Below are positions 11,271-30,604 of a stretch of DNA of 32,000 nt, piece after piece. The DNA is taken from the NCBI GenBank assembly GCA_021498095.1, contig JAIZWK010000001.1, positions 4,050,001 through 4,082,000 of the forward strand, in the 5' to 3' direction. Positions within the stretch are counted from its first letter, which is position 1, and each line of letters opens with the position of its first letter. The DNA comes from Candidatus Harpocratesius repetitus. GTDB taxonomy: Archaea > Asgardarchaeota > Lokiarchaeia > Sigyniarchaeales > Promethearchaeaceae. The notes beneath the pieces were generated by a model, which saw only the letters and a program-made list of their open reading frames with translations, had not been told where the DNA came from and did not search any database. Position numbers and translations under genes: made by a program.

Positions 11271-11373
11271 GCCTTCGTGTCTTAGTGGTATAGAGTTGCC
11301 TTGGTAAAGAATAAAACTGTATTCTTATTCTCTTTTAAGGCAAAGGTCGAGGGTTCAAGCCCCTCCGAAGGCT
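11271..11373 (+). tRNA. tRNA-Thr(GGT) with 31-nt intron at 37/38 (intron 11307-11337)
   Basis: Acceptor GCCTTCG/CGAAGGC, U73 discriminator, anticodon stem TTGCC/GGCAA, anticodon GGT at 11303-11305, T arm GAGGG-TTCAAGC-CCCTC. The intron forms a 7-bp AGAATAA/TTATTCT helix in the expected register. Confidence 0.88.
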
Positions 11374-19819: not shown

Positions 19820-19914
19820 TTACAGATTATATGAAAGGATCATATTTTCTATTTCCTAAGCATGTAGCTATGATTGGAGATACCCAATTTTCAATATTAT
19901 CTTTCTCCATTATA

Positions 19915-20178
19915 TGAGGATGTTTCATCTTTTTTAATTTAAACGCTTTTTTGAATATCATTCATATATATCCGACTTATATCTGAAATATAGCAATTCT
20001 TTTTTTGTCGAACTCGATTTTTTCAAAGAAATTGTTAAAAATATACCATCTTGTTTATAAATTCTTCAATCTGAAGTCGATTTTATTATAATTTTTGATT
20101 TACATATCTTGAATTTGGCACCTTGGTAAAATCGACAAAAAATAAAGAAGGATATTTTGGATTTGAGTCGGAAGAATT
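19915..20178. repeat. 264-bp non-coding structured repeat, copy A
   Basis: Colinear with the reverse complement of 30316-30579 (17 mismatches, no indels by hand alignment). Internal inverted arms at 19971-20010 and 20133-20172. Confidence 0.92.
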
Positions 20179-20214
20179 CAGATGATGAAATGAAAAACTT
20201 CGAATCTTTGAAAT

Positions 20215-20541
20215 TTAAAATACCCTCATATATTCTAAAGAAAATTGATCTAAAGATTTTTTATTTATATATTCTAAAGAAAATTGATCTAAAGATTTTT
20301 TATTCGAATCTTGATTTAATATTTTTTTCAATTTTTCGCTTAATTCCTTTTTTATAAAAGCATTCATAAATTTGTTAAAAATTGAAATTGTTTCGGAATA
20401 GAGATTATTAAATTCTAAAATTTTAAATAACTCAGCGATAAATTCAAGAATTATATCTGGTTCGGATTCAGTTTGGAATATCTTTTCAAATGATGACTTT
20501 GAGTCAATGATTTCTTCATAATTTGAATAATGGGGACACAT
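20215..20541 (-). CDS. Hypothetical protein, possibly the C-terminal fragment of the upstream ORF
   Basis: 108-aa ORF starting 2 nt after the upstream stop, ending in a 13-aa duplication. Confidence 0.45.
   Translation of the reverse strand: MCPHYSNYEEIIDSKSSFEKIFQTESEPDIILEFIAELFKILEFNNLYSETISIFNKFMNAFIKKELSEKLKKILNQDSNKKSLDQFSLEYINKKSLDQFSLEYMRVF
20228..20304. repeat. 39-bp tandem duplication
   Basis: atatattctaaagaaaattgatctaaagattttttatt occurs at 20228 and 20267, giving NKKSLDQFSLEY twice in the minus-strand ORF. Confidence 0.92.
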
Positions 20542-23111: not shown

Positions 23112-23235
23112 GCCGGAGTAGCTCAGTTGGTTAGAGCGCAGGACTCATAATCGCCATCCTAAAATAGGGTCAGATCGCGCATTTCGCGCTCGTTTTGTAA
23201 TCCTGAGGTCGGGAGTCCAATCCTCCCCTCCGGTA
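23112..23235 (+). tRNA. Elongator tRNA-Met(CAT) with 50-nt intron at 37/38 (intron 23150-23199)
   Basis: Acceptor GCCGGAG/CTCCGGT, D arm GCTC/GAGC, anticodon stem CAGGA/TCCTG, CAT at 23146-23148, T arm GGGAG-TCCAATC-CTCCC, A73. The GCC start fits archaeal elongator Met rather than initiator or Ile2. Confidence 0.9.
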
Positions 23236-26736: not shown

Positions 26737-28770
26737 CTATAATGTGAAATAACTGCCGGTGTTTCCATCAAATTCCATAGGAGCATCGCCACCAGTGTGT
26801 GGATAGTCTGCTGCTGCATGAGCAAAGGCATCTTCCATAGCTGTTGTAGCGCTACTACCATAATAATTAATTAAAGTATATTCTAAGAAATAATAGGTCC
26901 ATGCTCCATTTTGATGAGTGCTGTCATCATAACCATAGCCATTTTCTGTGCATGTTGTAGTACAATATACTTTTGCAGCGTTACCCATTGCCATTAAATC
27001 AGGACCAATTCCACCTGAATAGCAGTGATCAATAAACACGAAAATATCATCAGCGATAGCGGTTTGCAAAATCGCAGCAATTTCGGTGTCGTAAAGATCA
27101 CCATCTTCACCATCTTCTCCAGAAGCGCAATCCCATGCACAAATATATGAACTACCTGCACCGTCTCCAGAACCATGTCCTGAAGTGATATAAGCGATTT
27201 CACCACTTTGATCGGCTAACCAATTCAAATAATATTTGATATTGTACTCGGTTGCTATTCCATCATATTTAGGATAGTTTGCAGTGTTGGTGTCTCCTAA
27301 TACGATGATATTGCTGGATTCGTAGCCGATTGAAATCAAGTAGTTATACCAATCGGTAGCGTCTTCATCACAATAAGATAAATCATTGATTGCTTTATAA
27401 TCGGAAATTCCAACAATTAAAGCATATTTTCCTCCAGTATTTGGAACATTGTCAACAGTAATACTGATTGAATCTTCACCATAATTTCCTGCTTCATCAT
27501 AAGCTTGAACTGTTATTGTATGGCTTCCTTCACTAAGAGTGGTTGTATCAACACTCCATGAATATGGACTGGTTGAATCAACTGTCCATGAACCGCTATC
27601 GATTTTCATTTGAGTGTAACTAACTCCTACATTATCGCTGGCAGTGGCAGTAACTGTAATTGTTCCGCTCACAGTATCACCGTCCGCTGGAGCAGTGATC
27701 GATACGGTCGGAGCAGTGTAGTCTCCGTTAGCATTAGTATAATATGAAACTGTAGCAGTGTAGGCTGTGCTACTGGCACTAGAAGTATACATTCTTACTG
27801 CAATGTAGTAAGTTCCTGCAGTTTGAATTACATAAGAGCAAGTTTCTGGATTGTTGGTAGTATAACCACGAGCTAAATAATTGGTGTAGTCAGGTGTTGT
27901 GCAGATATAACAATCGATATCATAAGAATTACCCCAACTTACGGAGACAGTCATCTCTCCAGGTTCGACATCGGTTAATTCAAAATAATCGACTTCATAA
28001 CCTGCGACTGCATCATTAAATTCTCTGGTAATCAATTGAGTTTGACTGGGAGTATTGTCTACGGTAATAGAAATGCTATCTTCACCATAATTTCCCGCAG
28101 CATCAAATGCTTGAACAGTAATGGTGTGGGCACCGTCAGATAAAGCTGTTGTATCTACGCTCCAAGAATAAGGACTTGTTGAATCGGTAGTCCATGATCC
28201 ACTATCAATCTTCATTTGGGTGTAACTAACACCTACATTATCGCTGGCGGTAGCAGTAACAGCTATTGTTTCGCTTACTGTAGCGCCATTAGATGGAGCG
28301 GTAATTGAAACTGTGGGTGCTGTGGTGTCAGCGGTTCCACCAGTATAATATTTCACAGTTGCAGTATAACTTGTACTTGATGCATACCATGTATACATAC
28401 GAACAGCAATATAGTAAGTTCCTGCAGTTTGTATATTGTAGGAACATGTTTCAGGATTGCTGGTAGTATAACCACGCGCCAAGTAATTGGTATAATCAGC
28501 AGTTTCACAGATATAGCAGTCGATATCATAGCTGTTTCCCCACGAAACAGACAATTCCATCAATCCAGGTTCAACATTGGTAATTTCAAAGTAATCTACC
28601 TCATATCTCGCCACAGCACCGGTAAAGGTATCTGTGGTTTGAGTTGCACGTATACTTCGAACATTTTGTGTAGAAGAAGCAACAATATTTGATGAAAATG
28701 CGAGAAAAAGGGAGAAAACAATTGCAAATCCAACCCCAAACCCAATTATTTTTTTTTTATAACCCTTCAT
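26737..28770 (-). CDS. Secreted caspase-fold (clan CD, C14-like) protease with two tandem [PPC-like + bacterial Ig-like] modules
   Basis: Signal peptide; duplicated module 'YEVDYFE...LSVSWGNSYDIDCY...GTYYIAVRMY...DTTAPTVSITAP...DNVGV...DG.HTITVQA.D.AGN'; protease domain 'KYALIVGISDY', 'YCDEDA', catalytic 'TSGHG' and 'IDHCYSGG'. Confidence 0.85.
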   Translation of the reverse strand: MKGYKKKIIGFGVGFAIVFSLFLAFSSNIVASSTQNVRSIRATQTTDTFTGAVARYEVDYFEITNVEPGLMELSVSWGNSYDIDCYICETADYTNYLARGYTTSNPETCSYNIQTAGTYYIAVRMYTWYASSTSYTATVKYYTGGTADTTAPTVSITAPSNGATVSETIAVTATASDNVGVSYTQMKIDSGSWTTDSTSPYSWSVDTTALSDGAHTITVQAFDAAGNYGEDSISITVDNTPSQTQLITREFNDAVAGYEVDYFELTDVEPGEMTVSVSWGNSYDIDCYICTTPDYTNYLARGYTTNNPETCSYVIQTAGTYYIAVRMYTSSASSTAYTATVSYYTNANGDYTAPTVSITAPADGDTVSGTITVTATASDNVGVSYTQMKIDSGSWTVDSTSPYSWSVDTTTLSEGSHTITVQAYDEAGNYGEDSISITVDNVPNTGGKYALIVGISDYKAINDLSYCDEDATDWYNYLISIGYESSNIIVLGDTNTANYPKYDGIATEYNIKYYLNWLADQSGEIAYITSGHGSGDGAGSSYICAWDCASGEDGEDGDLYDTEIAAILQTAIADDIFVFIDHCYSGGIGPDLMAMGNAAKVYCTTTCTENGYGYDDSTHQNGAWTYYFLEYTLINYYGSSATTAMEDAFAHAAADYPHTGGDAPMEFDGNTGSYFTL

Positions 28771-30315: not shown

Positions 30316-30579
30316 AATTCTCCCGACTCAAATCTAAAATATCCTTCCTTATTTTTTGTCGTTTTAACCAAGGGGCCAAATTCAAGATAGGTAAATCAAG
30401 AATTATAATAAAATCGACTTCAGATTGAAGAATTTATAAACAGGATGGTAAATTTTTAATAAATTCTTTGAAAAAATCGAGTTCGACAAAAAAAGAATTG
30501 CGATATTTCAGATTTAAGTCGGATATATATAAATGATATTCAAAAAAGCGTTTAAATTAAAAAAGATAAAATATCCTCA
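30316..30579. repeat. 264-bp non-coding structured repeat, copy B (inverted relative to copy A)
   Basis: Reverse complement of 19915-20178 with 17 mismatches. Confidence 0.92.
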
Positions 30580-30604
30580 GTTAATATTATTCAATTTTTT
30601 ATTC

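Follow-up and report, generated by a model that had tools for sequence, protein, structure and literature searches.

Background

MITEs are well known in both bacteria and archaea (PMC10969869, PMC11602168). Those of archaea, Sulfolobus among them, are short, non-coding sequences that carry TIRs and a target-site duplication (TSD) of fixed length (PMC10969869; surveys cited in PMC13343696). Tens of copies lie dispersed and mostly intergenic, and they are moved in trans by the transposase of a resident IS element with matching ends (PMC10969869). A 2026 survey of archaeal IS elements covers those of Asgard archaea, not MITEs (PMC13343696). Within the literature searched, no paper was found that links MITEs to Asgard archaea, in which they seemingly have not been described before.

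REP/BIME-RAYT and PATE elements have neither TIR nor TSD and require a Y1 transposase. Among the families of ISfinder, the IS5-group and IS701 generate 4-bp TSDs. The Correia repeat-enclosed elements of Neisseria are about 100-155 bp long with a TA duplication. RNase III binds or cleaves their hairpin RNA, and this RNA has effects on neighboring genes (PMC2649163, PMC2229807).

'Ca. Harpocratesius repetitus', very probably the host of the element described here, owes its name to a repeat content of 4% (PMC8813620; bioRxiv 10.1101/2023.12.14.571608). The window considered here, the whole 32,000-nt stretch of DNA that was analyzed, spans 4,050,001-4,082,000 of one 4,361,485-bp contig with an N gap, from a genome that has a G+C content of 31% and is 93.6% complete. 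An earlier, sequence-only reading of this window had described an inverted pair of 264-bp repeats at 19915-20178 and 30316-30579, and had proposed that they represent either a structured RNA or a REP/PATE-like hairpin, "not a simple MITE". We find instead that the repeat is very probably a MITE, a cut-and-paste DNA transposon of 312 bp that is non-coding and non-autonomous. This assignment, which reverses the last of those statements, is made because full-length copies show TIRs and a 4-bp TSD, about 50 copies are dispersed in the genome, and related autonomous IS elements are present. The element is thus of a known kind, an ordinary MITE with a palindromic body; only the host clade is, apparently, new for MITEs.

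Extent and ends of the element

The inverted pair in the window is real. A repeat search places its arms at 19909-20178 and 30316-30585, 270 nt with 93% complementarity. Both copies, A and B, lie between convergent ORFs, and no ORF spans either one, as had been noted before; the ORFs that overlap the 312-bp element are small and partial only, leaving it without coding capacity. The unit is longer than the 264 bp first assigned to it. Alignment of 45 genomic copies together with their flanks gives 312 bp, below the limit of about 600 bp usual for MITEs and corresponding to 19916-20227 on the + strand of the window, and nearly all copies run 50 bp past 20178, the earlier right boundary. These boundaries are independently supported by public DNA runs at the locus, since contig depth rises about 100-fold exactly over the element and loose contig ends cluster at 19915/19916 and 20228/20232. 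No contig joint skipping the element was seen in these runs.

Copy A (19916-20227) is full-length and belongs to the youngest subfamily. Its left TIR (GAGGATGTTTCA) occupies 19916-19927 and its right TIR (TAAAATACCCTC, the reverse complement of GAGGGTATTTTA) occupies 20216-20227, as defined by alignments of 30 and of 45 copies; the right TIR is identical to the right end of a resident IS element at genome positions 2235226-2235237. The family consensus starts with GAGGATATTTTA and ends with TAAAATACCCTC, a 12-bp TIR with one mismatch. Thus, the TIRs (GAGGRTATTTTA) are complementary at 11 of 12 positions, and they are conserved across the 45 copies. Under the 4-bp TSD model, copy A is flanked by ATAT on the left (19912-19915) and ATAT on the right (20228-20231). 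Copy B lies on the minus strand at 30316-30578 and contains only element positions 1-263, lacking the last 49 bp with the right TIR and the right TSD. This truncation explains why a comparison of the two copies in the window had shown homology running beyond one arm and had failed to reveal a TSD.

When the 45 copies are aligned as 312-bp units, a perfect 4-bp duplication is present in 39 of them, in nine different sequences: AATT in 27 of the 45, ATAT and ATTT in three each, and ACTT, TTAT, ATAA, TTAC, ATGA, and AAAT in one each. A 2-bp TSD with a 314-bp unit fits 43 of the 45 copies. This model was displaced by the 4-bp/312-bp model after a co-variation test, in which rare non-consensus bases at the outer TSD positions were found to match the corresponding base on the opposite flank (permutation p = 2e-5). 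Because the outer bases co-vary between the flanks, the duplicated stretch is 4 bp long. Insertion shows a strong preference for AATT as target, set within the palindrome T-AATT-A. At genome positions 1,859,304-1,859,931 two copies that are about 8% diverged stand head to tail with one AATT in common, an arrangement indicating that the duplicated target of one copy served as the insertion site of the other.

A perfect 39-bp tandem duplication (20228-20305), each unit of which begins with ATAT, starts exactly at the right TSD of copy A. It lies in frame within a 108-aa ORF on the minus strand (20215-20541), where it encodes a repeated 13-aa block, NKKSLDQFSLEY(I/M). This ORF matches no Pfam family and ends MRVF* (codons 20229-20215); its M codon is shared between the right TSD and the final base of the element, and the MITE right TIR supplies RVF together with the TAA stop. 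The end of the protein is therefore read from the MITE, whose insertion replaced the original 3' end of the gene. Elsewhere in the window, a direct repeat of 300 nt (27443-27742 and 28049-28348, 75% identity, 606 nt spacing) falls within a 677-aa ORF on the minus strand (26737-28770) and is probably an internal domain duplication.

Hairpin and tests for RNA structure

Alignment of the arms shows that the whole element is one long fold-back. The pairing of the arms proposed earlier is recovered in the minimum-energy fold, where the 5' arm of a core stem (19971-20011, element positions 56-96) pairs on the + strand with the 3' arm (20132-20172, element positions 217-257). The + strand of the element folds at -66 kcal/mol (z = -3.0 vs shuffles) and its complement at -51 kcal/mol (z = -0.9). 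For the consensus the values are -76.5 and -61.3 kcal/mol for the + and - strands, respectively, an advantage of 15 kcal/mol for the + strand. Each arm is a diverged, inverted version of the other, so the long hairpin simply reflects a nearly palindromic element body and does not mark a dedicated RNA gene.

A different explanation is that the repeat is a multicopy gene for a structured ncRNA of about 200 nt, transcribed from an internal, TATA-like TTTAAA box (a sequence indeed present at 19938-19943) and maintained by selection on its RNA stem. Such a gene would account for a + strand that folds better than both its shuffles and the - strand, for the G-U pairs of the outer stem, and for the depletion of private mutations at paired columns described below. 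However, we consider this highly improbable. The dispersal of the copies is already explained by the TIRs and TSDs. In an RNAalifold alignment of 30 copies, including the full copy of G002, a second genome of the same genus, compensatory double changes are found in 0 of 69 pairs and the covariation term is -0.82 kcal/mol; as the copies are young paralogues, this test and the pairing tests have limited power. The earlier statement that several changes between copies keep the pairing is not borne out when substitution events are counted on the consensus fold. Transitions at Watson-Crick pairs yield 20 cases of G-U on the + strand and 18 of A-C, pairs are broken by a further 28 transversions, and where only one side has changed, pairing survives in just 35% of cases. 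Pair-restoring double changes number two, each in a single copy, among 101 pairs. As for the strand-specific G-U pairs described earlier, the three in the outer 22 bp do all fall on the + strand, but the asymmetry is not significant over the fold-back as a whole; in a strand-neutral arm-to-arm alignment, consensus mispairs are G-U on the + strand at 12 positions vs 7 on the - strand (p = 0.36). In addition, the youngest subfamily, to which copy A belongs, contains stem-breaking changes (T-T, A-G).

Searches of Rfam and the arrangement of neighboring genes also argue against an RNA gene. No Rfam family matches the element at the gathering threshold, and in a permissive scan of 19850-20300 the best match, to sau-59 (a Staphylococcus sRNA model), scores 24 bits vs a threshold of 80 (E = 0.51). 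Among the 45 copies, 13 have convergent neighbors and 8 divergent ones; where the neighboring genes share a strand, 11 copies have the same orientation as the genes and 11 the opposite one, so an orientation bias is absent. The only Rfam matches in the window are two tRNAs, at 11271-11373 (103 nt) and 23112-23235 (124 nt). Given that the tRNA model has 71 positions, both genes probably contain introns.

One pattern related to pairing is left, in the distribution of private mutations (singletons). The 56 singleton events are evenly spread along the element, and neither singleton nor shared substitutions are significantly clustered in a windowed analysis of conservation. At paired columns, 23 singletons are observed vs 36.7 expected with base stratification (p = 5e-5). 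Under a strand-neutral definition that treats the element simply as DNA, singletons are 2.7-fold rarer where the arms are complementary (p = 6e-4). The depletion is absent from the core 41-bp stem arms, and at columns where the arms are mismatched, complementarity is created by 39% of singleton vs 57% of shared changes. The depletion is symmetric between the strands and not RNA-specific; like its absence from the core stem, this counts against an RNA gene. Several explanations may be offered for it. Positions that are symmetrical between the arms may be needed by the transposase at both ends, and so be constrained in the source lineages; paired bases may be shielded from damage while the DNA is extruded as a hairpin; or there may be selection on the hairpin as such. 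None of the three is RNA-specific, and the evidence does not separate them. Because the + strand folds better by the margin given above and singletons are scarce at columns where the arms are complementary, the fold-back may be under some constraint in addition to that on the TIRs.

Candidate mobilizing elements

The MITE would be mobilized in trans, and it probably belongs to an uncurated, Asgard-wide DDE_Tnp_1 IS family whose members are about 1.85 kb long, end in GAG(G/T)AAATTTTA, and are flanked by AATT. The search for IS elements clustered all ORFs of at least 150 aa, followed by Pfam scans, and the genome was also scanned for inverted GAGG-type ends with identical 4-bp flanks. The latter scan yielded two elements. 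IS058 (1,859 bp, 3,573,257-3,575,115) has AATT flanks, TIRs of about 50 bp that start GAGGGT, and an intact ORF for a 387-aa DDE_Tnp_1 transposase. The related IS060 (1,821 bp, 3,318,102-3,319,922) has the ends GAGTAAATTT, AAAT flanks, and an intact 468-aa DDE_Tnp_1 transposase. A third resident family member, IS2234, contains an intact 496-aa DDE_Tnp_1 ORF (2,233,566-2,235,056). Its right end, GAGGGTATTTTA, equals the MITE right TIR at 12 of 12 positions; its candidate left end starts GAGGAT, like the MITE left TIR; and the asymmetry at position 5, A on the left and G on the right, is common to the ends of IS2234 and the MITE. By a rough estimate, the chance of an exact 12-mer match, correctly placed and oriented, beside one of four homologous genes is about 3e-4. 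The IS2234 flanks (TTAA vs CTTA) are not a TSD, and its left boundary is uncertain. The candidate IS elements resemble the MITE only weakly in their subterminal sequence, with a best z of 3.2 (uncorrected) and a value for IS2234 (z = 1.3) that is not significant. In this genome, no parent element with the same ends emerged from searches for TIR pairs, whether exact or fuzzy, or from short-word BLAST with the two ends as queries, and no autonomous element with both MITE ends plus the subterminal sequence was found.

The family extends beyond this genome. Homologues of the IS058 transposase are present in 10 of 21 related genomes, and five loci with definable ends in other Lokiarchaeial genomes give IS elements of 1.84-1.87 kb, all flanked by AATT. 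Four of the five end GAG(G/T)AAATTTTA, and the fifth (L068) ends GAGCCT; between the IS end at L065 (GAGGAAATTTTAAGTT) and the MITE left TIR, 13 of 16 positions agree. The transposases of the family score above the Pfam cut-off for DDE_Tnp_1. Against the NCBIfam IS families IS1634, IS1182, IS982, IS1380, and IS5 they all fall far below the cut-off, the best being IS1634 with 35-41 bits vs 100. Public homologues are either unnamed or called 'IS4/IS5 family transposase'; those named by organism are all Asgard (Promethearchaeota, Sigynarchaeota, Harpocratesius), and the closest is labeled 'Candidatus Harpocratesius sp.'.

Taken together, these features make the transposase of IS2234, IS060, or IS058 a likely candidate for the mobilizer, with the specific partner not proven. 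Mobilization in trans by a DDE transposase (DDE_Tnp_1, IS4/IS5-type) of the Asgard IS family would proceed as follows. The transposase would bind both TIRs of the MITE and then excise it; the excised element would insert at a 4-bp staggered cut in AATT.

Other resident sources were set aside. The ends and TSD lengths of the multi-copy IS families L032, L034, L035, L036, L038, and L039 and of an IS607-like element do not match those of the MITE, nor do the ends of a single rve-domain gene. PF13359 was not found in this genome, and HTH_38 gave sub-threshold matches only.

Several other repeats came to light in the same genome. About 35 copies of a 63-90-bp repeat, 80-97% identical, are dispersed in the genome, and one of them (about 2235104-2235178) lies between the IS2234 transposase stop and the right end of that element. 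A 3.1-kb element without a transposase (3642749-3645892) is bounded by TIRs that match at 19/20 positions, start GAGGTTATAG, and are flanked by a TTAT duplication. It carries an AAA_14/DUF4143 ATPase and an uncharacterized 367-aa protein and could be a non-autonomous, cargo-bearing relative of the DDE_Tnp_1 IS family. The 1.6-kb IS of L036, with an 8-bp TSD, encodes a 463-aa protein with an Ogr/Delta-like zinc finger. Its right-hand 430 bp (L036:2010-2439, genome ~2093110-2093538) recur at least 17 times in the genome and look like a second MITE-like family. Finally, a repeat of about 4 kb (L031, genome 2912500-2918500) present in 10-11 copies contains adjacent genes for 316-aa and 983-aa proteins with no Pfam match and may be an uncharacterized mobile element.

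Two other modes of movement can be considered. The element could be a MITE moved by a resident IS630/Tc1-mariner-type IS, which occurs twice in the genome, encodes a DDE_3 transposase, and creates a TA duplication. That such an element resides in the genome, and that the flanks can also be read as the 2-bp duplication discussed above, speak for this route. However, it is less probable even than an RNA gene, given that the co-variation of the outer bases makes the duplication 4 bp, the inner pair is TA in only 7 of the 45 copies, and the IS630-like TIR (GAGTCTTTTGAY...) has no significant similarity to the MITE ends. Less probable again is a REP/BIME- or PATE-like hairpin moved as ssDNA by a Y1 transposase of the IS200/IS605 type or a RAYT. 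The strong hairpin potential and the apparent strand asymmetry of the fold would suit such a mechanism. However, the element has both TIRs and a TSD, contrary to elements of that kind, and the Y1_Tnp domain (PF01797), sought as evidence for an IS200/IS605 transposase, is absent from this 93.6%-complete single-contig genome, even though the same search was positive in 6 of 14 control genomes. Thus, what endures of the earlier proposal is a multicopy, non-coding, hairpin-forming element moved in trans; its identification as a structured ncRNA or as REP/PATE-like does not.

Copy number, distribution, and mobility

The census of the MITE was made by blastn of the whole genome with flanks, and the counts of TSDs and gene contexts cover 45 copies. 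There are 54 matches, 47 full-length and 7 partial, and the copies are 92-98% identical to their own consensus. A plain segmental duplication of two copies only, which is all that is visible within the window, is refuted by these 54 BLAST matches, each with unrelated flanks and its own TSD.

Copy A and the copies at genome positions 42,527 and 393,531 are at least 99% identical, have unrelated flanks, and carry different TSDs (ATAT, ACTT, and ATAA, respectively), implying recent transposition. Intergenic copies account for 43 of the 45, in a genome that is about 84% covered by ORFs. Among 40 relatives searched, one is positive: the element occurs in one (G002) of two other genomes of the same genus and in 0 of 38 more distant ones. 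G002 carries one full copy flanked AATT/AATT and one internally deleted copy. Orthologues of the genes that flank the G002 copy are located here at ~738.6-741.1 kb with no element between them; the intergenic DNA is too diverged for alignment at the base level.

A possible link to Argonaute

The genome encodes RNase III (3523904-3524242) directly upstream of an 817-aa, PIWI-domain Argonaute (3524960-3527413), with an ORF of at least 465 aa coming next. This RNase III-Argonaute-ORF order (3523904-3527413) matches the published rnc-hrAgo1-helicase cluster. HrAgo1 has been described in the literature, and its natural guides are, as published, not known. To our knowledge, HrAgo1 is the sole characterized prokaryotic Argonaute that is RNA-guided, RNA-targeting, and PIWI-like.

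One could imagine that the ~50 MITE copies serve as a natural source of dsRNA for the rnc-Argonaute-helicase module, a speculative and quite unlikely possibility. Transcripts arising by read-through or internal initiation would form stems of >20 bp, which would be diced and then loaded into Argonaute. The sole hints in this direction are the fold-back, the fact that one strand folds better, and the scarcity of private mutations where the arms are complementary. If true, this would be an Asgard counterpart of the eukaryotic silencing of transposons by MITE-derived siRNA/miRNA. Because the host encodes an Argonaute beside RNase III, a recently active, hairpin-forming MITE family is worth seeking among the Argonaute guides.

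By itself the MITE family is routine, a repeat to be masked in annotation and not to be taken for an RNA gene, origin, or regulatory element. The uncurated Asgard-wide IS family, with its defined end motif and AATT target, should allow better annotation of IS elements and MITEs in genomes that are hard to assemble.

Comparison with known systems

Like REP/BIME-RAYT and PATE elements, the present MITE is a multicopy, intergenic, hairpin-forming repeat; unlike them, it has TIRs and TSDs, and it resides in a genome in which no Y1 transposase was found. It resembles the Correia elements in being an intergenic MITE with the potential to form a long hairpin. The analogy is purely functional, as RNase III processing and the regulatory effect belong to Neisseria, whereas the present MITE is known from DNA sequence alone. 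The candidate mobilizers share with the IS4/IS5 superfamily (IS5-group, IS701) a DDE_Tnp_1 domain, TIRs, and 4-bp duplications at a short palindromic target, but differ from its curated families in lying below every NCBIfam IS-family cut-off.

The closest relatives in kind are the archaeal MITEs of Sulfolobus and others, with which the present element shares its short non-coding body, its TIRs, its fixed-length TSD, and its tens of dispersed, mostly intergenic copies; in place of their resident IS partner with matching ends there is here a candidate partner. What sets this MITE apart from them is its Asgard (Lokiarchaeial) host and its candidate parent, an uncurated DDE_Tnp_1 IS family with an AATT target.
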